Virus record (IMG/VR): IMGVR_UViG_3300045988_098382
Length of the DNA: 64,000 nt
Strand: one strand, 5' to 3'
DNA from: a virus
Part shown: one piece after another, positions 17,673 to 64,000 of the stretch
Position numbering within the stretch: the first letter of the stretch is position 1
How the letters are laid out: each line of letters starts with the position of its first letter
The notes under the pieces: generated by a model
The model's input: only the letters and a program-made list of their open reading frames with translations
The model's database searches: none
What the model was told of the DNA's origin: nothing
Program-made: the position numbers and the translations under genes

Positions 17673-18038
17673 CTAATGTATTAGAGCACATATTATAGAT
17701 AATATACTTATACCTCCAAATAAATAATTCAATTTTGATAATTTTTTATTTTGTATATACAATTCATTATTTTTATCAGATTGAATCTTTATTTGATAAT
17801 CTTTATATGTTAGCGTACTATCCATTGTATTTACTAAAGATTTATAGTTATTTATTTGAATTTTTTGTAGACTATCATTTACTAGTAAATATTTATGCTC
17901 ATTAAAAATAAGATTAGTTATTTTTAATTGATACGGTGTCAATAAGAAGTTTTCTCCCGACTTCTTGAATGTAGTTTGTGAAAAACTGCATGTCGCTATC
18001 AGGAGACTGCTTAATAATATTGTCCTTCTCTTTAACAT
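17673..18038 (-). CDS. Lipoprotein with C-terminal TM segment (u-spanin-like). Start at internal Met MLKRRTILLSSLLIATCSF.
   Basis: n-region KRR, hydrophobic core, lipobox-like LIATC, C-terminal hydrophobic LFGGISILSIICALIH. Its 5' end overlaps the upstream membrane-protein gene in another frame. Confidence 0.4.
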   Translation of the reverse strand: MLKRRTILLSSLLIATCSFSQTTFKKSGENFLLTPYQLKITNLIFNEHKYLLVNDSLQKIQINNYKSLVNTMDSTLTYKDYQIKIQSDKNNELYIQNKKLSKLNYLFGGISILSIICALIH

Positions 18039-18246
18039 AGATAGTTTTATTATAGTAGATAGCAGTATCACACTTATTGATATCAACTTTAATAGAATTT
18101 TTCTTACTATTTAATGAGTCTATTTTTCTTTCTAAAGTATCTGTAGGTATTACAGTGGTAGATTTAAATCCTTTATATAAAAAGATAGTAGCTCCTATAA
18201 TAGTAATTAAAACTAATATTAAAATTATTCTATCTAAAAGTTTCAT
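17914..18246 (-). CDS. Type II (N-in) membrane protein, i-spanin-like
   Basis: N-terminal TM IILILVLITIIGATIFLY. The rest is hydrophilic and predicted periplasmic. Overlaps the lipoprotein gene. Confidence 0.4.
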   Translation of the reverse strand: MKLLDRIILILVLITIIGATIFLYKGFKSTTVIPTDTLERKIDSLNSKKNSIKVDINKCDTAIYYNKTIYVKEKDNIIKQSPDSDMQFFTNYIQEVGRKLLIDTVSIKNN

Positions 18247-18668
18247 TAATCTTCTACTACCTTATTATATAAAGCTGTTTTTTCAGCTAAAGCTTTAGAT
18301 TTTTCATATTTATCTTTAGCTTTAGCATATGCGACACTATACTGCTCAGGATATTGTTTTACGTGATTAACTTCATTATCGAGTATGTGTTTTACAGTCT
18401 CAATATTAAGAAGTCCTGCTCTACCTATTAGTACATTGGTATTTCTATCACTAATACTTTTACCATAAGCAATTTTCTTACCAAGTTCATTGTTGTGTTT
18501 ATCTACCGGATTACAGAAAGATACTCCAAAACTAAGAATTCTAGTAGGATTTTCAAATATAGCACTTTCTCTAAGAACAGCGCATACTACAAAGTAATGA
18601 TCTTTACCTTCAAAGTCTACAAAACTACCTTCTCTGTAATCTACAAGTTTCTGTTTAGTATTTGTCAT
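18246..18668 (-). CDS. Hypothetical protein
   Basis: 140-aa ORF between the spanin-like pair and the putative holin. No lysozyme motif recognised. Confidence 0.45.
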   Translation of the reverse strand: MTNTKQKLVDYREGSFVDFEGKDHYFVVCAVLRESAIFENPTRILSFGVSFCNPVDKHNNELGKKIAYGKSISDRNTNVLIGRAGLLNIETVKHILDNEVNHVKQYPEQYSVAYAKAKDKYEKSKALAEKTALYNKVVED

Positions 18669-24544: not shown

Positions 24545-25030
24545 TAGTCTGCTTCTAGATCATTCCAATAATCATCTAGATCACTTATAATGTCTGTTAG
24601 ATCTTCCATCAGGTATACAATATAAAATTAACCATATAATAAGGAGTATAATTATAAGTCCTATTCCTATTAAAAGTGGACTAAAAACAATCCACCACGA
24701 AATATCTCTTTAGCAACTAATAAAATAATAAAAGTTACTGGAACAACCCATCCTCCACATCCTAAATTTACATTTACCTTATCATTTGACAACATTTAAT
24801 AAAGATTTTATATAATCAATAGATTCCTTCACAGATAAGCAGTTTCCACTCTTTAACATAACGTAAGAGCTTTCACCAACTTCTTCTACTAAGGAAATAT
24901 CATCTACGGCTATTAAATATCTTCTATTAATACTATCATTGTCTAATGTTAAATCAATAAACACGTTTAATCATATTAATAATTTTTTACTAATAGTCAT
25001 CTGCGTTATGATAAGTAAGATAATATAATA

Positions 25031-25231
25031 CTATAAAGATTTAATCCTAGTACAGATTGTTTCTACAGCATTATTAAACTCTTGCTTATTACTATCTAAA
25101 ATAGTTTCTCTTAAAAAATCTAAATACGAAGTACTACGACTAGTGATAGAAGGTAATTTAAGATTTACTACAATACATTTATTACCATCTACTCTAATTC
25201 GTAATGCTCCACACTTTTTATACTTAACCAT
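25031..25231 (-). CDS. Hypothetical protein
   Basis: 66-aa ORF. Confidence 0.3.
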   Translation of the reverse strand: MVKYKKCGALRIRVDGNKCIVVNLKLPSITSRSTSYLDFLRETILDSNKQEFNNAVETICTRIKSL

Positions 25232-25363
25232 TTAAATTAATAAATATTAGTAATGCTAATACAAAAATAGGGACTAATAAGATAAACTTACTAGTCCCTT
25301 TCTTCTTGCCATCAAAGGCTTCTACAATTTCTTTTAATGTCATATGTTCATTATATAATTAAT

Positions 25364-25747
25364 TTATTTAAGAATTTTAACTTTTACGTTCTTAATACTA
25401 ATTCGTTTAGAATTTTTGGGATGTATTAATATATCAATACGATGTTTATGTCTTTTATTCATAACATCCCTAACTTCATATATCCCAAATCCTTCTATAA
25501 ACACTTTTTTAGGTTTATTCTTTGGAAATAAATAAAGTAAATCACGAGATATAGCACACCATTTAATTTTATTATGTTTTAAATGATGTAAATTAATTTT
25601 AGAACCATCAGCTGTGACTAATGGTTTATTATTACATTGACTCTTTACTGGTTGATAACAAGTAAGAGTTACATGAGTTACAGTTTGAGCAATACTTTTA
25701 GTACATAAAAAACATAATAATACTAATATAAATTTAAATCTTTTCAT
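25364..25747 (-). CDS. Secreted 3D-domain protein (MltA/lytic-transglycosylase-like cell-wall binding domain)
   Basis: Signal peptide MKRFKFILVLLCFLCTKSIAQ. TCYQP...TADG...H......A.......EGFGIYEVRD resembles the 3D domain. Confidence 0.5.
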   Translation of the reverse strand: MKRFKFILVLLCFLCTKSIAQTVTHVTLTCYQPVKSQCNNKPLVTADGSKINLHHLKHNKIKWCAISRDLLYLFPKNKPKKVFIEGFGIYEVRDVMNKRHKHRIDILIHPKNSKRISIKNVKVKILK

Positions 25748-25761
25748 TGTAAATAATCTTT

Positions 25762-26130
25762 TTAGTTATAGTATATATCACCACTCATAGTGCTAACATT
25801 ACCTGCTATAGTATTGCAAGTAATATCTCCACTCATTGTTTGTATTCCACCTTTAACGTCTTTACAATTTACATCACCACTAGAAGTACTAATAGCAGTA
25901 ACATCACCTGTAACTGAAACATTACCACTGCCAGTATGTATACTATTTATAGTACCTTCTACTTTTATTTCTATAGATGGACCTTTAAGATCTTCTCTTA
26001 AATTTCCATTTACATAAATTTTACCATTATTAATACTAATGGTTTGTGCTCCTTCTATTTTAATGTTATTAATCCAAGTAGCACCATTAATATTGTCTAA
26101 TGTTGTTTTAAATGTATTAATTATTCCCAT
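25762..26130 (-). CDS. Repeat protein with about 15-aa G-x-V/I-x-x-SGD(I/V) repeats (bactofilin/DUF4097-like beta-helix). Start at MGIINTFK.
   Basis: TGSGNVSVTGDV / TAISTSSGDVNC / KGGIQTMSGDITC / NTIAGNVSTMSGDIYYN repeats. Confidence 0.4.
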   Translation of the reverse strand: MGIINTFKTTLDNINGATWINNIKIEGAQTISINNGKIYVNGNLREDLKGPSIEIKVEGTINSIHTGSGNVSVTGDVTAISTSSGDVNCKDVKGGIQTMSGDITCNTIAGNVSTMSGDIYYN

Positions 26131-26599
26131 AATATATAAAATTTTTAGAAAATGTATACAAACAAAAAAAGTCGAGCTTATTGCCCGACCAAACATCAGT
26201 AAGTACCCCTTTGGTACTTACAAATTAAATAATAAGATTAAATAATTGGAGGCATGTATAATCTAGAATATTGAGTAACATACCAAATCCAACCCTTCTT
26301 AAATGCTTTTAAAGTTCTTTTTAAAATTTTCATCATAATAAATCAAATTTAAAGTTTAACTTATAAAATATCTAGGAGGAGAGTTTTAAAAAAATTAAGA
26401 ATCCCAGGTAAATCGCCCCTGTTAGAGATAATCTTATGGTCTCTATTTTTATTATTTAGGATTCTATAGGAATGCAAAAAACCATCGAATCATTCCAGTT
26501 CGTAGGTTCTACGACACCTAATAGGCGAGTATGCATCGTTGAGAGGCACCCTATAAGTTACGTTGCTCCTGTAACTAGTATTCTAGAGCTTTGTTATTG

Positions 26600-26677
26600 T
26601 GCAGGATGTGGGAATCAAACCCACGCAAGCCTTCACATTGGAAGTGTGATGTGCACCTTCAGCTACACTAATCCTGC
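26600..26677 (-). tRNA. tRNA-Gly (anticodon UCC) with long D-loop and 8-nt variable region
   Basis: Perfect acceptor GCAGGAU/AUCCUGC. D-stem GUGU/GCAC. Anticodon stem UCACA/UGUGA, loop CUUCCAA. T-arm GUGGG-UUUGAUU-CCCAC. Confidence 0.6.
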
Positions 26678-26690
26678 ATTATTTAATAGT

Positions 26691-26764
26691 GGACCACGGT
26701 GGGACTCGAACCCACGACATCTACCTTGCAAAAGTAGCGTTCTAGCCAACTAAACTACGAGCCC
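26691..26764 (-). tRNA. tRNA-Ala-like (anticodon UGC) with two acceptor-stem mismatches
   Basis: D-arm GUUU/GAAC, anticodon loop UUUGCAA, T-arm GUGGG-UUCGAGU-CCCAC. Acceptor GGGCUCG vs CGUGGUC has G3-G70 and U5-U68 mispairs. Possible pseudo-tRNA. Confidence 0.45.
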
Positions 26765-27356: not shown

Positions 27357-27417
27357 ATTTTTAGTAAGATTAGCGTTATCCAATTCACACCACGTGGAGG
27401 TTCTTACTATGTGAATC

Positions 27418-27497
27418 TTGCAGAGGCGGGATTCGAACCACTTTGTGCGACCTCTTGGTTATGAGCCAAGCGAGATAACCAACTTCTCCACTCTGCG
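27418..27497 (-). tRNA. tRNA-Met-like (CAU) with C1-A72 mismatch (initiator-like) and a weak T-stem
   Basis: Acceptor CGCAGAG/CUCUGCA. D-stem GAGA/UCUC. Anticodon stem CUUGG/CCAAG, loop CUCAUAA. T-loop UUCGAAU present but the 5' T-stem half is imperfect. Confidence 0.45.
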
Positions 27498-27508
27498 ATA
27501 TTAAAAAG

Positions 27509-27802: not shown

Positions 27803-27813
27803 ATATATTTTTG

Positions 27814-27893
27814 CGCCTAGACTAGGATTCGAACCTAGGAACCTTTCGGGGCAAGTTAACAGCTTGCTGCCGTTGACCACTTGGCTATCTAGA
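27814..27893 (-). tRNA. tRNA with anticodon GUU (Asn-type) but a 12-nt variable region and a 3-bp D-stem
   Basis: Acceptor GUCUAGA/UCUAGGC. Anticodon stem GCAAG/CUUGC, loop CUGUUAA. Variable CCCGAAAGGUUC. T-arm CUAGG-UUCGAAU-CCUAG. Confidence 0.5.
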
Positions 27894-27906
27894 CGAAAGT
27901 CCTGAT

Positions 27907-34955: not shown

Positions 34956-35048
34956 AATTAACAGTTAAAATTAAACAAAAATCCCTGAACTATAATAATA
35001 GCCCAGGGATTAAAAACAAATAATAATAAAAACAGTTCTATGAACTAG

Positions 35049-35377
35049 TGGAGCATTGGAGAGTCGAACTCCAGTCTTGCATATTTGCATCAAAGCATTC
35101 TTACAGCATAGGTTTTAAAGACTATCCTTGTCTTTTAGGGTTGACAGGATTAATATACTGTCAACTTCCACCACTCTGTTCCTAAAGTATACAGAGAACT
35201 TATAGAATTGTCAATGGCGCACCTTTCTGTTCCTAAGCAAGTGCTGCTCGGCTTATTAGGCAGCAGCCTGATAAGCAGGAGTCATATTAATAACTCTAGC
35301 ATTTATTGTTTTGTTGTCTTTCCAACTGTCTTTGCTGTGCTTCTTATCTCCTATACAATCAAAACCACGAATGCCCC
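35049..35377 (-). ncRNA. ssrA: tmRNA (ssrA), phage-encoded
   Basis: 5' GGGGCAU pairs with 3' AUGCUCC, including a G3-U70 wobble (the alanine identity element). 3' T-arm UGGAG-UUCGACU-CUCCA then discriminator A. Internal tag frame ...NMTPAYQAAA followed by UAAUAA double stop, then GCC... as in bacterial tmRNAs. About 329 nt, no protein ORF. Confidence 0.7.
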
Positions 35378-37780: not shown

Positions 37781-37996
37781 CTATTTAAATAACTCTATAA
37801 TTGGATAATAAATAATTGTATTATACTCAGCTATATTTAGGGCCCAAACTGTAACCAAAATCGTAATAAAGACTCCTAATCCCACAACGAGATATCTTCC
37901 TTTATACATAATTCTAGTTTCTTTTAATAATATTACTCTAAATACTATATATAATACAATCGTAACTATCCCTAACAGTACTTTAAGTATACTCAT
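37781..37996 (-). CDS. Small two-TM membrane protein
   Basis: 71-aa hydrophobic ORF. Confidence 0.35.
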   Translation of the reverse strand: MSILKVLLGIVTIVLYIVFRVILLKETRIMYKGRYLVVGLGVFITILVTVWALNIAEYNTIIYYPIIELFK

Positions 37997-42005: not shown

Positions 42006-42299
42006 AATTTATCTATAATTAATGTGTTAATAATCTATTTAAATAATAGGCGATTTTCACTGGTTATATTTAAACTATTCCATTGTCCTCAGCTATCTAA
42101 CGTTCTTTTTCTTTTTAACCCAAATGATTAATTTTAAGGTAATTACGCTATTTAATAGAGTTACTGAGAGTTGTTTAGTACCTATTAAAATTGTCAGGTG
42201 TAGAGATTCGAACTCCTTAGGCTTATTCCCGTACGAGCTATTCACCAATCTAACCCCTCGTAGATGACGGTTCCCACACCGTAAGTCACCTGTTAGATT

Positions 42300-43029
42300 C
42301 TTAGTTAGAATCTTTTAAGAATAATACTAATTCTTTTTTAGTACATGGTATTTCATATTTTTTACACCATTTTCGGATTGTAGTATCTGACACATTATAA
42401 AATTTACCTACAGCAACAAATGATTTTAACTCTTTAAATTTATTTATAAAATCCTATTTAGCTGGTAAGTCTACTTTTTGTGCCATTTTAGCAGCACATT
42501 TAGGACAATATCTAGCAGCTTTTGTTTTCTTTTCTGCTCCACATAATTCACAAAAATATTTTGCAGCTTTGTTTGCTTGTCCACAATAGTTATCTGTTTG
42601 TGAATGACAATTTGGGCATAGCATTTGTAAATTCTCTAACCTATTGTCTCTATTATCGCCGTTAATATGATGTAGCTAACATATTAAAGGATTATCTAAC
42701 CAATATCCATTCTTACAAGGGCACTTAGGATTCTCACACTCATTCTTTTTAAGACCCTCTTTAATTAACTTTTCTTTTAATTTAGTGGTATGAATATATT
42801 TTCCAGTACCTAAATATTCTTTTACTGGGACATAATTCTCAATTCCTTTTTTACTCTTTGCTCCATAAGTAAAATGAGAGTAATCTATATTATACTCTTC
42901 TAATCTTTTTCTTAATGTAGCAGTATTATTACCTGCTCTAGGTATATTTAGTTTTTCTAATACCTAAGATAATGAATCACAGTCTGCAATAACTGATTCA
43001 ATTCTTTCTTTTGACCAATCATACTTCAT
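42300..43029 (-). CDS. HNH homing endonuclease requiring read-through of three in-frame TAG codons (recoded)
   Basis: Hand translation from ATG at 43029: MKYDWSKERIESVIADCDSLS[TAG]VLEKLNIPRAGNN...NPLIC[TAG]LHHINGDNRDNRLENLQMLCPNCHSQTDNYCGQ...AKMAQKVDLPAK[TAG]DFINKF...ends TAA. Contains the canonical HNH motif. No TAA/TGA in frame. Absent from the standard-code ORF track. Confidence 0.65.
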
Positions 43030-43415
43030 ATTACATATTCTTAAAATTAGAAGGATATAGAGGAGTTAAACCTCTTCTTTTGGGGTCAAATCCCAACGTG
43101 ACTGTCGTTACACCAATATCCCTTGTATCTAATAGATAGCACTGTAGTGCTACCATTACACCATAGCCCATTATTAAAACTTTCTATCTTCACAGACCGA
43201 AAGTTTTCTAACTCTTTAACGTTTTTACAATCCGCTGATTGTAATATAATAATTCAAACAATTTCTATGAATTAGTAGCACTAGCGATACTCGAAATCGC
43301 CTTTGGATCTTGAAAGAATCCCGTCCTGACCAGCTAGACGATAGTGCCAAGTAGATTCTCTATCTATCACAGACTAAGAATTCCAAGAAAAAGTAATATT
43401 AAGATAAATTCCATG

Positions 43416-43489
43416 CGCACCCTGTAGGATTCGAACCTACGACTTTCTGACTAATAGCCAGACGTTCTAACCAACTGAACTAAGAGTAC
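43416..43489 (-). tRNA. tRNA with unusual anticodon loop CUAUUAG (formal anticodon AUU; a 1-nt register shift would give UUA)
   Basis: Acceptor GUACUCU/AGGGUGC (two G-U). D GUUC/GAAC. Anticodon stem UCUGG/UCAGA. T-arm GUAGG-UUCGAAU-CCUAC. Confidence 0.5.
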
Positions 43490-43634: not shown

Positions 43635-43641
43635 ATATGCA

Positions 43642-43729
43642 CACGGAGTAGGATTCGAACCCACGCTGTTCAACTTTCGTCTCTATAGGTTTTGGAGACC
43701 TACCCTTTCGACCACTCAGGCATCCGTAT
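43642..43729 (-). tRNA. Class-II-like tRNA (Tyr/Ser-like D-arm, ~20-nt variable arm) carrying anticodon CCA
   Basis: Acceptor AUACGGA/UCCGUGU. D-region CCUGAGUGGUCGAAAGGG. Anticodon stem UAGGU/ACCUA, loop CUCCAAA. T-arm GUGGG-UUCGAAU-CCUAC. Confidence 0.45.
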
Positions 43730-43904: not shown

Positions 43905-43990
43905 GAATTTGTACGGTAGAAAGGATTCGAACCAATGACCTTCTCGAAATGACCTATTATAAAAAGAGATGCTCTAACCACTGAGCTACT
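43905..43990 (-). ncRNA. tRNA-like gene with perfect acceptor and D-arm but a 4-bp anticodon stem enclosing a 20-nt loop and a degenerate T-stem
   Basis: Acceptor ACGGUAG/CUACCGU. D GCUC-AGUGGUUA-GAGC. UCUC-(20 nt)-GAGA. T region UGGUUCGAAUCCUUU. Same architecture as 44426..44506. Confidence 0.35.
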
Positions 43991-44050
43991 ACCGTAAGTA
44001 CTAGTTTATATCGGAAAACTAGTAAAACGTTAACACATTATTATGGAAAC

Positions 44051-44425: not shown

Positions 44426-44506
44426 TACGGAGTAAAGGATTCGAACCAGTATAACCTCTCTATGAATTGTGGAAGTGAGGTGCTCTAGCCATTAAGCTAA
44501 CTCCGC
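44426..44506 (-). ncRNA. tRNA-like gene, paralog of 43905..43990 (20-nt expanded anticodon region)
   Basis: Acceptor GCGGAGU/ACUCCGU. D GCUU-AAUGGCUA-GAGC. CCUC-(20 nt)-GAGG. T region UGGUUCGAAUCCUUU. Confidence 0.35.
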
Positions 44507-47209: not shown

Positions 47210-47584
47210 CTAATACACTATACTTCTTAAAGATTCGTAACCTTCATATATTGGAAATTCCGAATTAAGAGTAATCTTAATAAATACTCTATCATCAATA
47301 GTTACAAGTCCTACAGTTTTAATATTGCGATTACAATTATCAAAACTAGTACAAATAACTGTATTAGAGGTAAAATCTGTTACACCTTTAAAACCCATAT
47401 CAACAAGAACTTTACATATAGGTGTTAAGTAATAAATACTACCTTCCTTGATAACACAAGAAGAAAATGGAATTACTCTATCACCAATGTGATAAGTTCT
47501 AGTATCACGATCTATTGTGAGAGCCTTACCTGCAAGACTCTCACAACCTGATACAATTTTTTTATTTAAGTTCTCTGTATTCAT
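47210..47584 (-). CDS. Hypothetical protein
   Basis: 124-aa ORF. Confidence 0.4.
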   Translation of the reverse strand: MNTENLNKKIVSGCESLAGKALTIDRDTRTYHIGDRVIPFSSCVIKEGSIYYLTPICKVLVDMGFKGVTDFTSNTVICTSFDNCNRNIKTVGLVTIDDRVFIKITLNSEFPIYEGYESLRSIVY

Positions 47585-52519: not shown

Positions 52520-52917
52520 AACCTTTTTGCTTTTTAAATGTTAAACTTTTTTTTTGTTTGGTTTTTACTCCAAATATGTGGGGGGCTCTAAGGGGCAGTC
52601 TACTCCCTCCCACATAATAAAAATTAATTTTTAAATCCAAATCCTCACCTTATTTTCTCCATAAAAATCCCTATTTTTAAACCCTAGGGGGCTATATAAA
52701 ATCTTCTCTAAAAAAATTTTAAAATTTTAATTTAAAAATCTTAGAATATTAACTTTTACAAAAATTAACTTTTAATATTCCATACCTCGACTATATTACT
52801 CGTGTAATCAAAAAGAAATATTAAATGAATAAAGAACAACTAATACAAAGTATTAAAAACCTTCCTGATTAGTATAATATAAATTTATAGGTTATTGATA
52901 ATGTAATTCATATAACT

Positions 52918-53127
52918 ATGACTAAACAGGTAGATGAATTTGAAGAATATTGTAGTAAATTAGATGATGAAACATTTAATAATGCTTGTCTAATATTTGG
53001 AATTATCTCAGATATATCTTTAGAAGATTTTTCTTCTAATTTATATAATTCTAAATATAAAAAATATAAACAAGAATTTAAACATATAGTAGATTTTTTA
53101 AATGATAGAAACATTACAAAAAATTAA
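52918..53127 (+). CDS. Hypothetical protein
   Basis: 69-aa ORF at the start of the plus-strand island. Confidence 0.35.
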   Translation: MTKQVDEFEEYCSKLDDETFNNACLIFGIISDISLEDFSSNLYNSKYKKYKQEFKHIVDFLNDRNITKN

Positions 53128-53332: not shown

Positions 53333-53404
53333 TCTCCTATGGTGTAATGGTTAGCACAGAAGACTCTAAATCTTTTAGTCAGGGTTCGAATCCTTGTGGG
53401 AGAA
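53333..53404 (+). tRNA. Amber suppressor tRNA (anticodon CUA), probably tRNA-Gln-derived
   Basis: Acceptor UCUCCUA/UGGGAGA (U1-A72, one G-U). U8. D-arm GUGU-AAUGGUUA-GCAC. Anticodon stem GAAGA/UCUUU, 7-nt loop CUCUAAA (U33, C34-U35-A36, A37). T-arm CAGGG-UUCGAAU-CCUUG. Discriminator A. Confidence 0.8.
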
Positions 53405-53496
53405 GAATAGTATAAGTAGAAACCTCCACGTGGTGCTATTCGGGTAACGCTAATTCTACTTCAAAACATAACAAAGTTTAAATTTTTAAATAAGAA

Positions 53497-54174
53497 TTGA
53501 ACATGGGTTATATTTATTGTATTACAAATTTAATTAATGAAAAGAAGTATGTTGGAAAAACAACATATTCAGTTACAAAAAGATTCCAAGAACATTGTAG
53601 GGATTCCAAAAAAGAAAGATGTGAAAGAAGACCTCTGTATGATGCTATGAATAAGTATGGTATTGAAAATTTTGTAGTGGAAGAATTAATAGAGTGTCCG
53701 AATGATGAGCTAGATTCATATGAAAAAATGTATATAGAAAAATTACAAACTTACGGACACAATGGCTATAATGCTACTAAAGGTGGAGATGGCTCTATAC
53801 TATTTGATTATGATAAAATTATTGAAACCTACGCGTTAGGAGGTACTATGACTGAATGTGCTGCCAAAATGCATTGTTCAGTAGATACAGTTAAAAAAGT
53901 ATTAACTATTAATAATATTCCTATAAGACATAATCGAAGAGGTTGTTGTTCTGACCCTAAAAAAGTAGAACAATATTCTCTTGAGGGAGTCTTTATAAAA
54001 GAATGGGAAAGTATAACATTAGCTGCTCATTGGTTAGTAGATAATGGTTATGCTAAAACTTATAATAGTGGAGTAAAACAAAAAATAAGATTATGTATGC
54101 GAGGAAAAAATAAAACAGCATATAAATTTATTTGGAAATTTCCTCAAGAAGAACATGATATCAGCAATTTATGA
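53497..54174 (+). CDS. GIY-YIG homing endonuclease
   Basis: N-terminal GYIYCITNLINEKKYVGKTT...RFQEH matches the GIY-(10-11)-YIG core with Arg and Glu. C-terminal basic DNA-binding region. Confidence 0.8.
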   Translation: MNMGYIYCITNLINEKKYVGKTTYSVTKRFQEHCRDSKKERCERRPLYDAMNKYGIENFVVEELIECPNDELDSYEKMYIEKLQTYGHNGYNATKGGDGSILFDYDKIIETYALGGTMTECAAKMHCSVDTVKKVLTINNIPIRHNRRGCCSDPKKVEQYSLEGVFIKEWESITLAAHWLVDNGYAKTYNSGVKQKIRLCMRGKNKTAYKFIWKFPQEEHDISNL

Positions 54175-54677: not shown

Positions 54678-57516
54678 TTTAATGTCCCAACTCCTACAAA
54701 AACTATCTAAAATGGTAAGATCTAGTCTGAGGATAATACTCCCGATTATTCATATTGTTATATATATCTATAAAACCTCCAATAGTGCCTGTACTTACTC
54801 CTATAGGAGTGACATATTTATTCCACTAATACTAAATATTATCAACTTTTCTTTGTGGTATTACAGAAAAATTAGTTTGCCAAGCATGTGTACGACTTTC
54901 CTAAAGTTTTTTATTCCATTTTCTATACTAAGGATATTTATAATAAGCTTTAGTATAATCATACTGAGGCTTAGAAGAATAGACATAATTATTAAGAGGA
55001 CTATATTCTGTAGTCTATTTTACTTTAGGTCCAAACCCACTATACTTTACATATTTACCCCATCTCATAGGAGCAGTATAAGGGTTAATAACTTGATATT
55101 CAGGGAATCCCATGCTTGTATAATCTCTAAAATCAAATCTAGGATTTGAACCTATTTCTAGCATATTAGTAGCTCCTGACTAAGATCCTGAAGAGTAACT
55201 TTTTAATCCGATAGTAGGCTACTACAAAGCACCAAAATACTTACCTCCATTATATGTCTCTCCATAATATCCATTTATATTTAATTTTTTAGCTAACTCT
55301 GTAGTCTATTTGGTACCTTCTTCTATAGATAAAGTACCCTAAGCTACTTTTCTATTAATATCATCAAATAAATAATAATTTGGGTCTGTTCTTTGTAATC
55401 TATTTTTTATAGAATTTACATAATCCTAAAAAGAATTAATGCCAACTCTATTATTTAATATAGCCGTAACATCTCCTCCTAAACCTCCCCTTGAAGAATT
55501 TAATAACTAATTACCTCCAATTCCTGAAGCCTATCCATTAAATGGGGCTACTACGGAACGAAGAGCATTATTTTCTGTAGTAATATCCCATTTTGGAGTA
55601 AATTTAGAAGACCAGAATGCTGTTCTTATTCCCATATTATCTGCTATTAAATTCTAATTAACTATAGATTCTACAGCATCGTCACTATAAACCTATGGAA
55701 TATTCCATCTAGTTCTAGCTTCCTAAATTTCCTAAGGAGTTAACTTTAGTCTAGCCCAATCATTAGTAACAGCATTAGTATTCATTTTCTAGATTCTATT
55801 AGTTAGCCAAGGACTACTAAACATTTGAGCTTGTCTACCTACTTGCTTAGGTTTAAAACCATTATAGTTATCCATAGCTACCATTAAATCATATATTCTA
55901 GGATGTTTCTATAATTGGATATATAATTCTTCAGCTTTTATAGGCAGAGCCTACTCTGTAGTATTAAATACTTGACCTTTCTATATAGCTGTGTTACCTA
56001 GTGATTCCCACTATTTCTATAACTATTTATATTTCTATGGGTATAGTCTAGAATAATAATTATGAGCTAACTATCCTGTAGCATATCCTTTAGCATCTTC
56101 TCCAATAGTCTAAACATCGATTACATGATTACCATCAGAATTAAATACTTTGTTATTACCTTCTAAGGACTATTTAAACCCATTAGATGGTCCATATTGA
56201 GATCCTTTTTTACCAATACTTTTCTAGACTGCTCCTAATCTAGATTTAGTTGTTAGTAACTCTAAGTCATGAGGTACTCCGTTAATAATTCCAGAACCAT
56301 ATAATCTTGTAGAACCTCCAACAATAGCACTACCATTTAGAGTAGTTTCTAAATCTTTTAAATACTAACTTAACTCAGAAATACTTGAAGTAACTTTACC
56401 AGTTTCATAATTTATTTTTGGGCGAATAGTTACTTCTTGTCCATTTAAATTAATAGTTACGCTAGGATCTTTAATCTATTTTAAATTAGTTGCATAATCA
56501 GCGTGCCATTGTTTTCCACTTTTAGCAGTAGCTTTCCAATCAATTCTAGGATTATGAGTTCTAGTGTATGTTATATTTCTATATTCAGATAGAGCATTAG
56601 GATAAGTCGCCTCTAAATCAGACATTTTATTTTGTAGCTACTATTCATAAGCTTCTTTAGATGCAGATCTAGCCTCACCTATACTACTCCAAGTATATTT
56701 TTTATTAATTATATCAGATAATCTTTTAGCGGGTTTCCAAGATTTATAAATTCTATTAATACCATAAGGAGCAAAAGTAAAAGCGGTATTTAATCCAGCA
56801 CTTGCGTAATTTTTATCTTTAATATCGTGGTGTATGTCAGCAAGATTTTGCCCTATAAACATAGCATTACCTATACCTCTAGCAGTAGCACTAGGTAACA
56901 TACTAAGTACCATAGAAGTACCAGTATTTATATCATGTATAGATTTTAATAATCTATAACCTAAAGGAGCATCCCACTAAGAATTATTTACAAGATTTCC
57001 ATTACTATCTTTTAAATACTATCCAGTTTCTAAGTCTTTTAAGAATGGATCTTCTGGATTATAATCTACTGATCTATCAGACTATATATTAGGAGATACT
57101 TTATAAGTACTGCGATAATTAGCCTCAGCCTTATCTCTAGCATTTTTAGCTAGTACTTTACTTCCTGAGGTTTTTGAAGACGCTAACTCAGCAGCATTGC
57201 GCACTTTATTAATATTTATTTTGTGTGCATTATTAAAACCCTAGTTTACTTCCTATTTATTAGTTCCTCCAGTATTTACTAATCTATTTTTTCTATATAT
57301 AGGAGCATAAAATGTTTTTACTCTAGTACTATTATTCTATTCAATATGCTGAGGCACAACTTCTACCTAAGGTCTCTATAATTTTTGAGTTCTCTTCTAA
57401 AGATTTTGAAGATTCTAATATAAAGATTTTACTGAAACACCATTATCTTTAGAATTAAATAAATTTATTCCTCCCCAAGACTATTTATAATTATTATCTT
57501 TTACCTATACAGCCAT
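54678..57516 (-). CDS. Large recoded protein (about 945 aa, more than 40 in-frame TAG codons), probably virion/tail-associated
   Basis: Hand translation from ATGGCUGUAUAG... (M A V Q V K D N N Y K Q S W G G I N L...) down to a UAA at 54678..54680. Contains the fragment the track reports as 56641..56913. TAG is the only in-frame stop. Coordinates approximate. Confidence 0.5.
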
Positions 57517-58638
57517 GGTGTTCTTACTATTACTGGAGTTCCTAATTTATCTAATATTTTTAATCCTAACACAGCTTTACTGTCTAAATCATATAAACTC
57601 CATTTCTACTTATATTCATCAGGATTAAACTTCCAAATATCTTGTGCTCTATATACTTTTTTACCATTAGATATTCCTTCCTAAACTAAATGTCCAGCAG
57701 CATCAACTCCATTATCTCCAAAGTCTAGATTATTATTAGCACCTTTCCAAGGAGTTTTATTAGTTACATTAGAAGCTTTCTACATAGGTCTCTTAGTAAA
57801 GAAATCTAAAGTTTCAGTATTTTCATATACAGGAATATTTTTATATGGGTATATCTTTCTTATATAATTCTCATGCGGACCATAATCTATATTTATTTTC
57901 TTTACTCCATAAGAAGGATTAATAGTTTTATTATATAAATAAGCATCAATCATATCATTACCTTTAGCTGCTTTCTAAAATCCAGTATATGCTTCAGGAG
58001 CATAAGTATTATACCCTATACCAGTTGATATATAAGATAATACTCCAGCATGTTTTTTAGGACTTACTTTATGCATATTATATACTATATCTTCTATAGG
58101 ATTAGCATTATTAGAAGTTCTCATAGCTACTTCTACTCCACGTTTTAAAGGAGCTTTTACAGCATATCCTATTGCAGGAAGTATTAATAAATAATTACTA
58201 GCTTTAGTTGGATTTCTAGATATATCTAAAGCACCTTTAGTATAGTCATATATTGCCTAAGCAGCTGGAGCTAAAGCATAACCTATTCCTGAATTAACTA
58301 ATGCTTTAATAGGACTAGTATTATTATTCCAACTGTCTATTTCTCTAGCATATGCTCCTTTTATAGGATGATTTCTATTCTTATTACTATAATTATATAA
58401 TTTAGAATTAGTATGTCCTCCCCTATTTTATAGTTCCTCTATTATCTACAAATACATCTCGTATACTATTTAAAGTTCTAACTGGAATAACTCTCTACTA
58501 ATATTTAGCACCAAAATATGGAGATTTAAATCTAGGATGACTTAGTCTATTCTAATACTCCATATTTATAGCCATCTATTTATTCCGAGTATTATTATTT
58601 ACTCCCTTGTTTTGTTTACTCTCATCTACTATTGGCAT
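57501..58638 (-). CDS. Recoded protein (about 379 codons) with a frame discontinuity at a GGGG run near 58410
   Basis: Starts MPIVDESKQNKGVNNN... Frame 1 hits UAA just after AAAUAGGGGAGG. A -1 shift in the G-run continues a clean ORF (...GGHTNSKLYNY...GIGYALAPAAQAIYDYTKGALDISRNP...TPWLYR*) with TAG as sense. Confidence 0.4.
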
Positions 58639-58640
58639 AT

Positions 58641-58856
58641 TTATACTTTATTTTTCCATATACTAGTTATACTGTCTATACCTAATAATCCCATACAACA
58701 ATATAAAACTGTATCTACCATATCTGGTGCTTGTATCTAACTAATAGAACAGTATATTAGAATAATTAAACTAACTATCCATCCTAATATTCCACATACT
58801 CTTTTACTACTTATTCCAGTATGTGCTGTTACTAATTTAATTAAAAACTCTTTCAT
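58641..58856 (-). CDS. Holin-like small membrane protein (72 aa, one in-frame TAG)
   Basis: MKEFLIKLVTAHTGISSKRVCGILGWIVSLIILIYCSIS[TAG]IQAPDMVDTVLYCCMGLLGIDSITSIWKNKV: two TM segments. Sits 1.8 kb from the SLT lysin. Confidence 0.45.
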
Positions 58857-59354
58857 TAATTAACTTAGATAACCAACTATAATGTTTTCTATGACTTAGA
58901 TAATCTAAATTACCCTAATTCTAATAAGCTTCTCTTTCAAAGGAGATATTTTTATAAGCTAATTTAGTATCTCTGTACATAATTAATCTAATTAAATATT
59001 CTATTATATACCATAAATAAAAACCTATCCACAATAGTTCCTATCCCTATTTAGTATGTATAGTCTCATGATTTATATCTATCTTATTTAGTATTCTTCT
59101 ACAGAATAGTATGCCAAATAAATTTATACATTTAAAACCTTTTGGAGGTAAGATATTATTAATTATTATTTTCATTGTCTAAGTAATCTAATATTTCAGT
59201 AATAGTATGAGATTCTATTAATAAATAGTTTTCATTTTCTAATTGATCCAAGAGACCTTTTCCAAGTGTGATATACATTTTTAAAACTTTAAATATTTAT
59301 TCCATAACTACTTATCTCTCTCATTTACGAAATCTAAAAATCTTTGTAATTCCT

Positions 59355-59875
59355 CAATCTTTTCTGTCAAAGTATATGTATCCATTATTATTTTTATTAG
59401 GTTTTAAATTAAATCCATTACCTTTAGTTTTAGTAACATACAATGTGGGAAGAACATTAGCCCCATCATAAACTATTTTAGTTCCACCATTATTATAATC
59501 ATAATCGGAGCCTAGATAGTCCATAGTATAATCTAAAGGTTTTCCACTATTAGGTTTTATATATTGATCTTTACTTAAATAATATATCTTATTATCTTTA
59601 CTCCAAGATTTATCTCCTAAATCTGGATAAGTTGCATGTGATTTAGTTTTATAAGTTCCTGAAGCTCCTTCATCAGAAAAATGTCCAGTAGGAATATGTT
59701 TACTCCAATTATGTGCTAAAATACTATTTAACTATAGCCAAGCTACTATAGGTTGGTCATTATAATATTTTCTATAATCATAATGATCTTTAGATAAATC
59801 TTGATTATTCCAGGCTTGAGACAACCACTTACTCCAAGTATTATAATTATATAAAGGCTATTTATTTTTTGTCAT
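59355..59875 (-). CDS. Recoded hypothetical protein (about 173 aa)
   Basis: MTKNK[TAG]PLYNYNTWSKWLSQAWNNQDLSKDHYDYRKYYNDQPIVAWL[TAG]LNSILAHNWSKHIPTGHFSDEG...ends TGA. Start overlaps the upstream stop (AAUGAC). Confidence 0.45.
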
Positions 59876-60662
59876 TATATGTAGATATTCCAAATTTAAT
59901 AAAATCCCCAACATTTCCAGTAAGTCCTAGCATATCTAAAACTAAATCAATTTTAGGATTATGAAATCTAGTTACATCAGAAGCTCCTAAAGTTCCAGCT
60001 ACTCCTAATGTTCCACTAGTAGCATTCCAGGTAGTTTCAAAAGTATTGTTATTTTTAATAGCATCATAAGTCTAATAGCCATCTATTAAAGTACCTCCAA
60101 CCTACATAGGTAATTGGGCTTTCTAAAGAAAATTTGCTACAGCTCTTTTAGTAGCAGAAGTAGCTGTTTCCCATTTTCTCCAATTAGAATAGGCTCCTAA
60201 TATAGAACCTCCTGACAAACCTAATTCTATAGCAGTTAAAGTAGCATCAAGACCATTTTTATAATCTTTCCATTTATCTAATTTTTTTTGTATTTGATTT
60301 TTAATAGCTTGTTCTACTTTAATAGACTAAGAAGTATTTATATCAGCTTGCATTGCATTCTAAATAAAATTAGCTTTTTGCTAAAGATTATTATTAGTAT
60401 TAGGAGTAACTTTTATATTAGAAAATAACTAAGAATCTTTGTTCTAATTTTTTTTCATTCTAAGCTATCCTTCTTTACTATTTATATACTTTTCTCTATT
60501 TTTTATATTTAACTATTTTGTTTTTAACTATTCCTATTTAATACTATCTATATTTTCCTTAGACTATCTAGCTATTCTATCCTAGTAATCTTCTTCTGAT
60601 TCCCAACTTTTCTTTTTTAATGTAGGAGTTGCTCTTACAGGAACTACATTACCACGTTGATA
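59862..60662 (-). CDS. Recoded hypothetical protein (about 266 aa, more than 25 TAG codons), Gln/Lys-rich N-terminus and Gly-rich hydrophobic C-terminus
   Basis: MLKLIPKYQRGNVVPVRATPTLKKKSWESEEDY[TAG]DRIAR[TAG]SKENIDSIK[TAG]... start codon nested in the SLT stop (AAUGCUUAA). Confidence 0.5.
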
Positions 60663-61338
60663 TTTAGGAATTAATTTAAGCATTTCTAAATTTATTTATA
60701 TATTTTGCAACATTAGTACCATTAGCATCAGATCCTCCTGTAATACCATACTTATAATAATTTTTAGCCCATGTTGGATTTAGCCATGATGCTGCTATAG
60801 CTTCTCCAGTAACTGTTATACCATTATTTCTTAAAAATCTTGCATTATCATCATATAATTGTGAAGCAGCTAATACTTGTGCATCAGGGCTATTTTTAAA
60901 TTGTTCTCTAGATAAATTAGAATAACTTTTTCTAGTACTATCTATAAACTAAAAATATCCAGCAGCAGAACTATTTTTAGACTAAGCTTTAGGGTTAAAT
61001 CTTGATTCTAAAGAAGCTATCTTCATTAAAGTAGTTTTCTTGTTTCCAGTGATACCATATTTATCTAAAGTCTACTCTAGTATCTACTTATTTTTACTAG
61101 GAGTATTATGATTTAATTTAAGCTAGGTATATTTATATTGTACAGGCTCTTTAGCTTTGTTAATAGAAAAATATCCATCTAAATTTAAACCATTAATATG
61201 AAAATCTCCAGTATTTAATTCAGGAATAAACTAATATTGCCTAGGAGTAAAATCTAAATCTAAGCCTTTACTTTTTAGTACTTCTGTAGCAGGTTTATCA
61301 GGAATATCTAAAGCTTCATATTTAAAATATTCACTCAT
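60655..61338 (-). CDS. Lytic transglycosylase (SLT domain, family-1 lysozyme-like) encoded with 7 in-frame TAG codons
   Basis: ...MKIASLESRFNPKA[TAG]SKNSSAAGYF[TAG]FIDSTRKSYS... matches the SLT consensus E-S-x-F-N-P-x-A-x-S-x-x-G-A-x-G-L-M-Q-(F/L). The invariant Gln of GLMQ is supplied by a TAG codon. ATGA overlap with the upstream HNH gene. Stop TAA. Confidence 0.75.
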
Positions 61339-61580
61339 AATTTTATTAAACCATTATGTATTTTAGAATGACAATTTTTACAAACACAAACTGTTTGAGA
61401 TAATTCTTTAATAAATAAATCTGTAGGTATGTGACTTACAGCTTGTGATATATTAAATAATTTTTCTCCAATATGATGAAATTCTAAACAACATTTAGCT
61501 GATTCACCACATACTATACATTGTGTTTTATGTTCATTTAAAATCTTTTTATTTTCTTTATAATATTTATTCTTACGCAT
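61335..61580 (-). CDS. Small HNH endonuclease
   Basis: CIVCGESAKCCLEFHHIGEKLFN...CVCKNCHSKIHNG: CxxC + HH...N + CxxCH..H HNH/Zn motif. Standard-code ORF. Confidence 0.6.
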   Translation of the reverse strand: MRKNKYYKENKKILNEHKTQCIVCGESAKCCLEFHHIGEKLFNISQAVSHIPTDLFIKELSQTVCVCKNCHSKIHNGLIKL

Positions 61581-62338
61581 AATTAGAATAATTATTAGGC
61601 TAATTAAAATTAACTAGAGCTAGAGGTCCTAATCCTTGAGTAGCTCTATAATAATTAATTCTTTTCTTCACTCCAGGTCTTGTAAGTAATAAATCTTTTT
61701 TATAGCCATTATAACCTTTTTCGGAGTTATACATATACTTAACATTTTTTTGTATTCCGTTATAATACTACTAAAAATTCTAAGCTTTAAGCGAATCTGG
61801 ATACATTCTACTATGCCAATCAATTAAATGCTATGCAAAAGATTGTGCATTAGGATATTTTTTATTATCTCCAGTAGCAAATCCAGTCCAACCTTTTTCT
61901 GCAACCTTTTGATTAGTTAAATCTAAAGCTGCTTGTGGAGTAACTCCTTTATCTACTAAAGCTTGATATATCTAAGTTACATTGTCATATTGACTTTTAG
62001 TTCCAGGTATCTTACCTGCTAACTACATTTTAAGAATAGTACCTCCATTAGCATGTTTCCATTTAGCAGCATTTCTAGCAAAATTAGCTCGACGTTTTTG
62101 TAAAGGAGTAGCATTAGGATTACTTAATACAGATCTAGCATGTTCCTATACAGATTCTCCAGCTGCTTTAGCTGATGCAGTAAACTTACCCTTATTTTTA
62201 TCTTTTATATGGATAGTATTTTTTCTATCTTTTATCTATCCGCCTTTCTTTAGTTTATTTATAAAACTAAACTGATTTTTAATCTTAAAATCCTAATAGG
62301 CAGAATAAATTCTTTCTTGTAATTCAGAATTAGTCATA
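61571..62338 (-). CDS. Recoded hypothetical protein (about 255 aa, 10 in-frame TAG codons)
   Basis: MTNSELQERIYSAY[TAG]DFKIKN...GESV[TAG]EHARSVLSNPNATPLQKRRANFARNAAKWKHANGGTILKM[TAG]LAGKIPG... ends TAA. No TGA/TAA in frame. Confidence 0.55.
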
Positions 62339-62473
62339 ATGTAATAAATAAGATTAAAATACTTTTGAATATAAATAACCTATATATATACTTAAATAGT
62401 ACAAAATAATAATAACTTTACCTATTAAATATAATAATAATGTTATTATAGATAACATATATATAAATATTAC

Positions 62474-63194
62474 TTATAGTAATATGAAAAAAATTATAAT
62501 GGTTATTTTAGATTATTTAAAAAAATTATGGAATTTTATTTCCAATTTAACTTCAGAAACTAAAACTATAATTATTTTTGTGTTATTAATATTTATACTA
62601 AATCCAATTCCTAGAAGTTATTACGAAGAAACTCTTTCTAATGTTATGAAAAAATAGAAAGAAGAATTACGTAAAGAAGAAGATAATGGATTTAAACAAG
62701 CTCCTTATATAGCTTAGTGTATTGATAATATAAAAATAAAAGATCCTGATTGTAGTAATGTTTTGCTGTTAAGTTATCACAATACTAAACATAGCTTACA
62801 GGGTTTTAGTTATATTTATTTAGATTGTATAAGAGAAAGTGTAAAATCATATTCTGATGAATATGTTGGAGATTATTGGCAGACTTTATAGTATACTAAT
62901 TATCAAGAAGAATTAAGTAAAATTGATGATACTGCTTATTTAAGAGTTGATAGTCTTTCTCAAATTAGAAACACTTTCCCTAGATTATATAAAAAGTTAG
63001 AATAGAGTGGAGCATATTCAGCTGCTTTCTATCCTATAGAAGGAATTAGAAATCCTATAGGAATAATAGTAGTTTTATATAAATAGCCTAAGAAATATAA
63101 GTTAGGTTATTATAATACAGTTATTTCTCCACAAATTCAACGATTATCTACAATACTTGATGATACTGTAAATGACAATGACAATGAAGATTGA
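62474..63194 (+). CDS. Recoded hypothetical protein (about 240 aa, 5 in-frame TAG codons), plus strand
   Basis: MKKIIMVILDYLKKLWNFISNL...VMKK[TAG]KEELRKEEDNGFKQAPYIA[TAG]CIDNIK...ends TGA. Confidence 0.55.
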
Positions 63195-64000
63195 TAAAGA
63201 AAATGATGGAGTAGCTTTCAATGATTCTACTCATGTTTATTGGGATATTAATAATCCAAAGAAAGAATACATTTCAGTAACTACTTTAATAGGAAGTTAT
63301 GCACAACCTTTTGATTCAGATTTTTGGTCTAAGTATAAAGCTTTAGAAAAAATTCTAGATACAGATGTATGGAAAGATTTAAAAAAGACTTTACTTAACA
63401 CACATAGAATTACTGAAGAAATTTTAGAGGCTTATTCTGTAGACATTAATGATCTTAATAAGGAACAACAGAATATTCTTGATGAATGGGAAGCTAATAA
63501 AATAGAATCTTGTGAAAGAGGAACAAAAATTCATTCTCAATTAGAACATTCTTTTTATAATATGAAAGATGATAAACCTTTACAAAAATTTGGATTAGGA
63601 GGTAAATTTATATGTAAAGAAGGATATACTAAATTAGATTTAGAAAATGGTGTATATCCTGAGTATTTAATTTCCTGGTCTACTCCTGATAATATTCTAA
63701 ACTTAGCAGGACAAATTGATTTAATGGTTAAATATGGTAATGAAGTTACTATTGTAGACCATAAAACTAATAAAAAAATAGACTTAAAAGGAGGATTTAA
63801 TGCAGCTACTAGAGGTACTACTAAAATGCAATACCCTTTAAATACTATTGAGGATTGTAATTATGGTCATTATGAGATGCAACTTTCTACTTATGCATTT
63901 ATGCTTCAGCAAAGACATCCAGAGTATGTGATTAAAGATTTAATTCTTAATCATTATGATCATAATATGAAAAATACTCTATATCATTGTATTTATCGAA
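63181..64000 (+). CDS. Partial PD-(D/E)xK nuclease (YqaJ/lambda-exonuclease-like), continues beyond the window
   Basis: MTMKIDKENDGVAFNDSTHVYWDIN...ISVTTLIGSYAQPFD...QIDLMVKYGNEVTIVDHKTNKK (D...E/D-x-K). No TAG in the visible 270 codons. Confidence 0.5.

Follow-up and report, generated by a model that had tools for sequence, protein, structure and literature searches.

TAG as a probable glutamine codon in the virion-side genes of a crAss-like phage, and a suppressor tRNA gene flanked by a putative theta ribozyme

How can some 8.5 kb of viral DNA be nearly empty of open reading frames (ORFs) in the standard code and still look like protein-coding DNA? This question is raised by positions 54679–63194 of the IMG/VR virus record IMGVR_UViG_3300045988_098382, of which a stretch of 64,000 nucleotides (nt), here called the window, was analysed. 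A preliminary description, made from the sequence without database searches, had proposed that the stop codon TAG is read there as glutamine. The answer arrived at here, which we hold with high confidence, is that TAG encodes Gln in the virion-side arms of the genome, that the replication genes keep to the standard code, and that a phage-encoded tRNA with the anticodon CUA, tRNA(CUA), is the decoder, a theta ribozyme being predicted to cut its 3′ end. The features concerned are collected in Table 1.

Table 1. Features of the window discussed in the text (aa, amino acids).
Feature	Position	Strand	Basis or remark
Standard-code block, replication and nucleotide metabolism	601–52519	-	family scans
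HNH endonuclease, 3 TAG, inside the standard-code block	42301–43029	-	codon counts
Ordinary tRNA-Gln(UUG)	43050–43122	-	ARAGORN
100-aa ORF directly upstream of tRNA(CUA), 2 TAG kept in relatives	52825–53127	+	codon counts
Amber suppressor tRNA, anticodon CUA	53333–53404	+	ARAGORN; Rfam tRNA model, 63.6 bits
Theta (minimal HDV-like) self-cleaving ribozyme, putative	53405–53460	+	scan for theta-ribozyme segment layout
GIY-YIG homing endonuclease, no TAG	53503–54174	+	Pfam PF01541
945-aa ORF, 47 TAG	54679–57516	-	no family; invariant GS-x11-DLE motif
207-aa ORF (from first ATG), 4 TAG	57501–58124	-	frame open up to 58427, start uncertain
Zincin-like protease HExxHxxQ, 112 aa, 4 TAG	58837–59175	-	PHROG 15610
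186-aa ORF, 2 TAG	59354–59914	-	86% identical to MT835539 orthologue
273-aa ORF, 14 TAG	59862–60683	-	C-terminal half Gly-rich, hydrophobic
SLT lytic transglycosylase, 220 aa, 6 TAG	60676–61338	-	Pfam PF01464, E = 2.5e-9
HNH homing endonuclease, 81 aa, no TAG	61335–61580	-	PHROG 3106 and 2255
254-aa ORF, 10 TAG	61573–62337	-	codon counts
236-aa protein, 5 TAG, first gene of the plus-strand arm	62484–63194	+	95% identical to MT835539 orthologue
PD-(D/E)xK exonuclease, no TAG, runs off the window edge	63172–64000	+	PHROG 298, E = 1e-24

ORFs were called from ATG to a stop codon (at least 60 aa, greedy and non-overlapping), and several sets of stop codons were compared. With the standard code (code 11), 54679–63194 yields three ORFs with a median of 90 aa, a maximum of 155 aa and a coding density of 0.12; with TAG as a sense codon there are 11, with a median of 207 aa, a maximum of 945 aa and a density of 0.93, which is the near-empty ORF track giving way to long proteins that had been described. 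Reading TGA as sense brings no rescue (density 0.15). Between 1 and 52600 the choice of code matters little, the density being 0.77 with code 11 and 0.81 with TAG as sense, and the longest ORF having 677 aa either way; code 15 gives longer, homology-supported ORFs in 54679–63194, as the preliminary description had anticipated. Eight recoded ORFs, 2433 codons in total, contain 92 in-frame TAG (3.8% of codons) and not a single TAA or TGA, and they end in TAA (six) or TGA (two), so that TAA and TGA are indeed the sole terminators; the other two frames of the same DNA contain 361 TAA. In-frame CAG is also rarer in the recoded genes (2.5 per 1000 codons) than in the early genes (9.5). Full-length products with family support, that is, the zincin of PHROG 15610, the SLT domain and a 945-aa protein with 70 full-length homologues, are obtained only if TAG is sense. 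Because TAG alone rescues the ORFs and in-frame TAA and TGA are absent, the recoding is a genuine, TAG-specific pattern which chance falls far short of explaining.

An abrupt change of code at about 52.6–54.7 kb, and the fact that most products of the region belong to no known family, might also be expected if the block were not translated at all, being either a decayed pseudogene region or part of an artificial joint between a standard-code and a code-15 phage. The probability of this is close to nil. TAG is all that interrupts these AT-rich frames. Further, in MT835539, a genome from Mexico which is 93% identical, the orthologues of the window's genes are 85–96% identical and their TAG positions are conserved. 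The junction of early block, tRNA(CUA) and TAG-rich genes is also present in MT835539 and in several independent IMG/VR contigs of other samples (113–188 kb), which excludes a chimeric assembly, and neither GC content nor strand skew changes there. MT835539 also puts the extent of the recoding into perspective: there, at least 27 kb of TAG-rich plus-strand genes begin after the exonuclease and a further ORF without TAG, among them a P22-like portal gene with 46 TAG and genes for tail-tip proteins, while the replication side is TAG-free. The proposal that recoding is confined to 8.5 kb thus has to be given up as an effect of the window's edge, since in this relative it runs on past the point where the window ends.

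The assignment of TAG to glutamine is well supported by two kinds of alignment. In the zincin-like protease (58837–59175) the first TAG coincides with the final Q of the HExxHxxQ motif, a residue that is invariant in 10 of 10 homologues translated from their own DNA. In the SLT lytic transglycosylase, AAGYF[TAG]F aligns with ATGWFQF of phiKZ gp144 (PDB 3BKH), which places TAG on the Gln of G-x-x-Q; this motif had already been the argument for TAG = Gln in the preliminary description, and the alignment bears it out, although the coordinates of the ORF had to be corrected from 60655–61338 to 60676–61338. The HNH endonuclease (61335–61580) and the PD-(D/E)xK exonuclease, which had been proposed for the same kind of tabulation, hold no TAG to tabulate. 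The second kind of alignment uses codons, tabulated from the DNA of three diverged homologues of the 945-aa protein (L003–L005; 66%, 47% and 35% identity over aligned codons). Opposite the TAGs of the window these carry mostly TAG and then CAA, the commonest non-TAG partner, which is two substitutions away from TAG; the residues encoded by the non-TAG partners are led by Q (22), followed by E (11), K (11) and R (8). In a BLOSUM62 log-likelihood over 133 observations Q comes first, leading E by 27.8, K by 32.7 and R by 38.9 nats, and the eight best candidates do not include Tyr, Trp, Leu or Ser, each of which trails by more than 80 nats. Between the window and MT835539, TAG stands opposite TAG 30 times and opposite CAA 2 + 2 times. 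The database homologues of the 945-aa protein even have Q at every TAG column; this is circular and was not used as evidence, because the three entries looked up (P0045, P0060 and P0069) do not match the standard-code translation of their own DNA and had thus been called with TAG as sense.

A sense TAG for another residue (Glu, Lys, Arg, Tyr, Trp or pyrrolysine) could be argued from the K and E that come next after Q opposite TAG, from the body of tRNA(CUA), which is as close to a phage tRNA-Arg(UCU) as to Gln tRNAs, and from the prediction by Kienbeck et al. (PMC10879173) of a Trp, Ile or Tyr isotype for about 30% of amber suppressors. It is very unlikely nonetheless, considering that TAG occupies two motif positions at which Gln is invariant, that Q is well ahead of every competitor in the likelihood, and that the top partner codon, CAA, could not have come from TAG by a single mutation. 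Pyrrolysine in particular, which a dedicated non-canonical tRNA-Pyl would insert at rare sites with the help of pylSBCD genes, was rejected: “tRNA-Pyl” is merely ARAGORN's name for the anticodon CUA, the canonical tRNA model fits the gene, TAG is used far above any pyrrolysine usage, and it aligns to Gln. No pyl-like families turned up among the general family scans of the proteins.

Reading TAG as Gln requires a decoder. The preliminary description had made translation of the recoded genes dependent on a suppressor tRNA but had missed its gene, which is present in the window, in a short plus-strand cassette that separates the recoded arm from the standard-code block, and which recurs in identical form in nine IMG/VR contigs. 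tRNA(CUA), which is presumably active, has a U1:A72 pair, as do the Gln tRNAs with which it was compared, and the discriminator base A73; CCA is not encoded. The closest unambiguous tRNA-Gln genes are those of phage AM24 (UUG, 85% identity) and of an Azobacteroides crAss-like phage (CUG, 79%), the latter sharing U1:A72 and A73 with tRNA(CUA). The suppressor supE (glnV) of E. coli is a tRNA with a tRNA-Gln-type body and a CUA anticodon, which inserts Gln at UAG. The window's tRNA(CUA) resembles it in the anticodon and possibly in the type of body, and differs in being encoded by a phage and in serving hundreds of sense TAG codons; its charging by the host GlnRS is assumed. The ordinary tRNA-Gln(UUG) of the window is only 47% identical to tRNA(CUA), which rules it out as the source of the suppressor.

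A theta ribozyme motif follows the suppressor gene without a gap. Its G1 (53405) directly adjoins the discriminator base (53404) and lies within the 5-nt criterion for proximity to a tRNA 3′ end, and the sequence fits the layout P1/J/P2/P3/L3/P3'/P1'/P1.1/P4/J4-2/P2', with the predicted catalytic C (53450) as the first base of J4/2. The core segments are identical to those of theta ribozyme no. 1, the most frequent one published (supplement of Kienbeck et al., PMC10879173), from which the window's copy differs by compensatory changes in P2 and one U·G pair in P1; the part of the supplement text that was searched holds no exact match, only a near-identical entry. The Rfam model HDV-F-prausnitzii (RF02682) gives only 20.3 bits, as compared with a gathering score of 44. 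Among the phage genomes with such ribozymes studied by Kienbeck et al. (PMC10879173), 85% of suppressor tRNA genes adjoin a theta ribozyme, and code 15 is predicted for 96% of the genomes with a suppressor-associated theta ribozyme. The window's ribozyme shares with theirs the segment layout, the core, the cleavage site at the tRNA 3′ end and a tRNA lacking CCA; it differs, apart from P2 and P1, in being present or absent as an indel among close relatives and in being followed by a GIY-YIG gene. It is probably active. A second theta ribozyme motif is located directly 3′ of tRNA-Met(CAU), a common partner in the same paper (PMC10879173), at 27417–27363 on the minus strand (by segment GATTCAC/AT/AGTAAGA/ACC/T/CC/ACGT/GGT/GTGAATT/GG/ATAACG/CTAA/TCTTACT).

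The following scenario would account for this arrangement. The genes for replication and nucleotide metabolism (0.6–52.5 kb, minus strand) are readable under the standard code, presumably that of the host, and the divergent virion-side arms use TAG as a Gln codon, in several genes as the main one. tRNA(CUA) would supply the decoding, the ribozyme at its discriminator base being predicted to cut the tRNA 3′ end, after which CCA would be added enzymatically and the tRNA charged. Before tRNA(CUA) accumulates, the host RF1 should terminate the TAG-containing ORFs after a few dozen codons, and full-length products of these genes would therefore have to await the suppressor.

The functional split on which this scenario builds is sharp, though not free of exceptions. 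The standard-code block encodes NrdD, an exonuclease, a primase, a DnaB-like helicase and another helicase, further NAMPT, a macro domain protein, flotillin, an AAA ATPase, tRNA arrays and many small ORFs, and its called genes contain no in-frame TAG in 11780 codons. Recoded genes with assignable functions are SLT and zincin in the window, and portal and tail genes in MT835539. Nine of the 75 ORFs of the standard-code block end in TAG (between 3255 and 50248), and reading through these stops would extend them by 0, 0, 0, 3, 3, 3, 3, 10 and 19 codons; in ORFs 10960–11730, 37781–37996 and 47210–47584, for example, TAG is directly followed by TAA. A back-up TAA or TGA within three codons is found in 7 of the 9 ORFs ended by TAG versus 17 of the 66 ended by TAA or TGA (Fisher p = 0.004), as would be expected if TAG were read through at some stage of infection.

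Several observations weigh against the reading proposed here. The isotype of the tRNA(CUA) body is ambiguous by similarity between Gln and Arg, as U1:A72 and the 79–85% identity to unambiguous Gln tRNAs favour Gln but a tRNA-Arg(UCU) from phAPEC8-type phages comes just as close (87% over 60 nt), and the “tRNA-Gln” annotated in cr7_1 itself has a CUA anticodon, which makes that match circular (among the crAss-like “tRNA-Gln” matches, the anticodon was re-checked for cr7_1 only). The isotype is thus not decisive, and the Gln assignment is carried by the protein alignments. TAG also occurs outside the recoded block, namely in the HNH gene 42301–43029 within the early block and in the small ORF 52825–53127 just upstream of tRNA(CUA); the claim that 0.6–52 kb, with ORFs of up to 677 aa, does not rely on TAG holds for the 11780 codons counted above, and not for this HNH gene. 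A similar recoded intron endonuclease has been described by Borges et al. (10.1101/2021.08.26.457843). Conversely, TAG-free genes (HNH 61335–61580 and the exonuclease) are located inside the recoded zone. The label “late/structural/lysis” comes from a few genes and synteny, most proteins of the recoded arm having no assignable function; of the late lysis and structural block that had been proposed, “structural” is reasonable because crAssphage gp56, a homologue of the zincin, sits among tail genes, whereas “lysis” is not borne out by a set consisting of SLT, zincin, a membrane protein and unknowns, among which no lysis cassette was identified.

A further point on this side is a second putative suppressor, tRNA(UUA), conserved at 43911–43995 on the minus strand. 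ARAGORN calls it tRNA “Stop (tta)”; it scores 53.2 bits with the Rfam tRNA model and has a counterpart in MT835539 at 6356–6440. It is thus conceivable that tRNA(CUA) is not the sole or main decoder and that tRNA(UUA), by wobble, or a host factor reads TAG; in MT835539 and three further contigs, moreover, an insert of 1003 nt disrupts the gene for tRNA(CUA). We regard this as improbable. Most ORFs of the window terminate with TAA (54 of 81 among those called before 54.5 kb, and 6 of 8 in the recoded block), and an ochre suppressor that worked efficiently would read through these stops; no sign of TAA reassignment was seen in the window. The structure of tRNA(UUA) is ambiguous, ARAGORN giving a long variable arm with a mismatched anticodon stem and Rfam an 11-nt insert in the anticodon loop, and UUA tRNAs occur in phages without TAA reassignment (Yutin et al., PMC7886860). 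Finally, where the CUA gene is split, both exons have remained intact and give a normal tRNA when joined in silico.

Whether the split in function is also a split in time is a separate matter. It may well be temporal and time the expression of virion and lysis genes, as the scheme of RF1 termination followed by suppression would have it. The code change could, on the other hand, be real and no timer at all, reflecting neutral spread of TAG, sabotage of host translation, or exclusion of competitors or a defence; early genes would then lack TAG simply as they are read before any suppressor exists. We consider this the less probable of the two, but it deserves to be taken seriously. Yutin et al. 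(PMC7886860) and Babkin et al. propose anti-host roles and describe phages with a suppressor but no recoding; TAG is found in the early-block homing endonuclease and in the small ORF beside tRNA(CUA); and the late genes are poor in every codon that ends in G, which makes the pattern partly one of general codon bias. Against it stand the sharpness of the functional split, no TAG in the early codons as compared with 92 in 2433, and the recurrence of the same split in independent phage lineages. The functional split as such leaves cause and consequence unseparated between these two views. A scan for sigma-70 promoters and terminators between 52.4 and 63.3 kb was uninformative, the counts equalling the shuffled expectation.

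The suppressor locus itself is polymorphic. In a comparison of 14 close genomes (the window, MT835539 (L001) and 12 IMG/VR contigs), the tRNA(CUA) gene was found in four states: bare; followed by the theta ribozyme; followed by the theta ribozyme and the GIY-YIG gene; and split by an HNH-bearing insert. Relative to MT835539, the window has an insertion at 53405–54150 consisting of the theta ribozyme and the GIY-YIG gene (53503–54174), the latter being an insertion relative to the IMG/VR relatives as well. Four of these (L021–L024) have only the theta ribozyme at the 3′ flank and five have neither element, two being bare (L026, L027) and three having another flank (L019, L020, L025); the theta ribozyme thus comes and goes as a mobile indel of some 70 nt would. 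In MT835539 the 3′ flank is bare (locus at about 15000–16050), and here, as in L028, L029 and L030, the 1003-nt insert (15011–16013 in MT835539) splits the gene within the anticodon, separating U35 from nucleotide 36. This insert contains an intact ORF for a 273-aa HNH endonuclease lacking TAG, is preceded by U, ends in G, and is flanked by intact exons. ARAGORN missed the split gene and recognized a normal tRNA(CUA) after the exons had been joined in silico. An Rfam group I model search of the MT835539 insert gave no match.

Another split tRNA gene is present in the window itself. tRNA-Leu(UAA) (40876–40282, minus strand) consists of the exons 40876–40842 and 40332–40282 and an insert of 509 nt (40841–40333), which ends in G, occupies the classical U34/A35 site of the tRNA-Leu group I intron and holds no convincing ORF; when joined, the exons form an 86-nt tRNA-Leu(UAA). 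Both ARAGORN and the Rfam tRNA model missed this gene. Parts of the insert resemble elements that crAss-like phages carry inside their primase genes and that are also found in Lak phages. The Rfam model Intron_gpI matches it only weakly (13.8 bits, E = 0.7), and because the group I model fails, the identity of the inserts as introns rests on the insertion site, the U before and the G at the end, and the intact exons. Should the 1003-nt insert be an intron that splices itself, the suppressor would mature, and all TAG-containing genes would be translated, only by way of splicing or ribozyme cleavage. As a tentative suggestion, selfish RNA and DNA elements may have a hotspot in the suppressor tRNA gene and might thereby gate the switch of the code. 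Split suppressor genes could, if this is true, explain why many TAG-recoded phages seem to lack a suppressor tRNA; that split tRNA genes are missed by standard finders is the single practical point that goes beyond the literature covered.

The recoded minus-strand arm extends from 62337 down to 54679. In the order of transcription it encodes the 254-aa protein, HNH (without TAG), SLT, the 273-aa and 186-aa proteins, zincin, a protein of at least 207 aa and the 945-aa protein; the divergent plus-strand arm starts at 62484 and runs past the window end. The 945-codon ORF is the most TAG-dense gene, 71% of its Gln-type codons being TAG (47 TAG, 16 CAA and 3 CAG). It is absent from MT835539, which has other genes in its place, and its product had no match among GenBank phages by tblastn. 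Its structure was approached with an AlphaFold 2 (AF2) model of the homologue P0001 (89% identical by BLASTP, 94% in alignment A1), which has a predicted local distance difference test (pLDDT) score of 68.8; Foldseek searches of this model against pdb and BFVD returned nothing below E = 0.6, and a profile search of the protein against PDB sequences found no match. After these null results for family, fold and PDB, an identity as “tail fibre” was dropped. Residues about 399–421 comprise an invariant VGGSTRLYGSGIINGVPHDLELL segment, a form of the Pol-beta nucleotidyltransferase signature (GS-x11-D-x-E), which is only a lead as to a possible nucleotidyltransferase-like motif. Searches of Pfam, PHROG and NCBIfam returned no match to any of the 945-, 207-, 186-, 273-, 254- and 236-aa proteins.

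The product of 57501–58124 is 94% identical to that of ORF 17505–18554 in MT835539. The zincin matches PHROG 15610 with E = 1.6e-45 over profile positions 1–104 of 105, all its Gln-type codons are TAG, and its family comprises 124 homologues in Bacteroidota phages, crAssphage gp56 among them. At the position of the 254-aa ORF, L005 has a gene with a Phage_lysozyme2 domain. In the 236-aa protein of the plus-strand arm (62484–63194) the TAGs are conserved in MT835539, and the N-terminal segment is, by eye, hydrophobic. HNH 61335–61580 is a standard-code selfish gene within the recoded arm, and the PD-(D/E)xK exonuclease is a standard-code gene between two recoded arms. The MT835539 exonuclease (24808–26751; 647 aa, no TAG) carries an intein-like insert of about 370 aa which the window's copy lacks; the block ends in MT835539 are ...VDHK/GLPLD... 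and ...THN/TNEKIDLKGG. LAGLIDADG-type ORFs interrupt the region of the expected terminase in that genome.

Some further RNA genes of the window, all on the minus strand, deserve mention, namely a gene resembling transfer-messenger RNA (tmRNA) at 35046–35377, which matches Rfam RF00023 over the full model length (48.1 bits, gathering 47, E = 8e-17) and on which ARAGORN is silent; an extra tRNA at 44426–44506, seen by Rfam only, with an 11-nt insert in the anticodon loop; and several over-long class I tRNAs with inserts in the variable region, for Gly (79 nt), Met (82 nt), Asn (82 nt) and Trp (91 nt), the sites, in another order, being 43639–43729, 26599–26677, 27417–27498 and 27813–27894. At 43415–43489 there is a tRNA-Asn with the unusual anticodon ATT.

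As for the kind of phage, the evidence fits a large crAss-like phage of the human gut as the source. Contigs with homologues measure 113–188 kb, the largest 183–188 kb; at least 18 tRNAs, homing endonucleases (HNH, GIY-YIG) and split tRNA genes are present in the window, with an intein in a relative; and in L004 a crAss capsid domain is encoded next to a 30%-identical homologue. The distribution of homologues suggests a host among the Bacteroidota (Prevotella or Bacteroides). Going by genome traits, since TerL, the portal and the major capsid protein (MCP) are outside the window, a placement near the Zeta or Epsilon crAss-like phages would fit: these have genomes of 145–192 kb, introns and inteins, blocks of tRNA genes, and TAG followed by TAA (PMC7886860, PMC12386605), to which the size of the related contigs, the split tRNAs, the intein in a relative and the back-up stops of the window correspond. 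With crAssphage the window shares the gp56-type zincin protease. The Lak megaphages of Prevotella are similar in their TAG recoding and in short stretches of 84–90% identity, at 42025–42293 and in the region of the tRNA-Leu intron, but belong to another lineage, with genomes of about 540 kb, and the shared stretches look like mobile elements rather than common descent. The one at 42025–42293, some 270 nt beside the HNH gene 42301–43029, is 89–90% identical to Prevotella Lak megaphage genomes, which points to a mobile element held in common and to a host of the Prevotella type.

For annotation the consequences are considerable, as these 8.5 kb, and by extension approximately the virion half of the genome, are lost under table 11, so that table 15 or a caller handling several codes is needed. 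The phenomenon is already established, and nothing here departs from the published model of late-gene recoding. Yutin et al. 2021 (PMC7886860) described recoding of TAG to Gln (code 15) in late genes of crAss-like phages, with TAG or TGA recoding “mostly in late genes” of the large ones; Borges et al. 2021 (10.1101/2021.08.26.457843) reported late-gene recoding in phages, and Peters et al. 2022 (PMC9523058) showed TAG = Gln by proteomics in two crAss-like phages. As had been proposed for the window, the pattern is that of crAss-like and Lak phages: TAG-free replication genes, TAG-rich virion-side genes and a suppressor tRNA. With the code-15 crAss-like phages (PMC7886860, 10.1101/2021.08.26.457843, PMC9523058) it shares structural-side genes with TAG in frame, replication genes that the standard code can read, a phage CUA tRNA, an AT-rich genome, few TAG stops, and TAG aligned to Gln. 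A potentially new angle is the suppressor gene split by an intron or flanked by a ribozyme, which may act as a gate and be a reason for suppressors having gone undetected. The window is thus a further well-resolved case, which combines replication genes lacking TAG, TAG stops with a back-up behind them, and a suppressor tRNA with a theta ribozyme motif at its 3′ end, differing in no principle from the code-15 crAss-like phages, its recoded genes being arranged in two divergent arms with a TAG-free HNH gene and a TAG-free exonuclease gene between.

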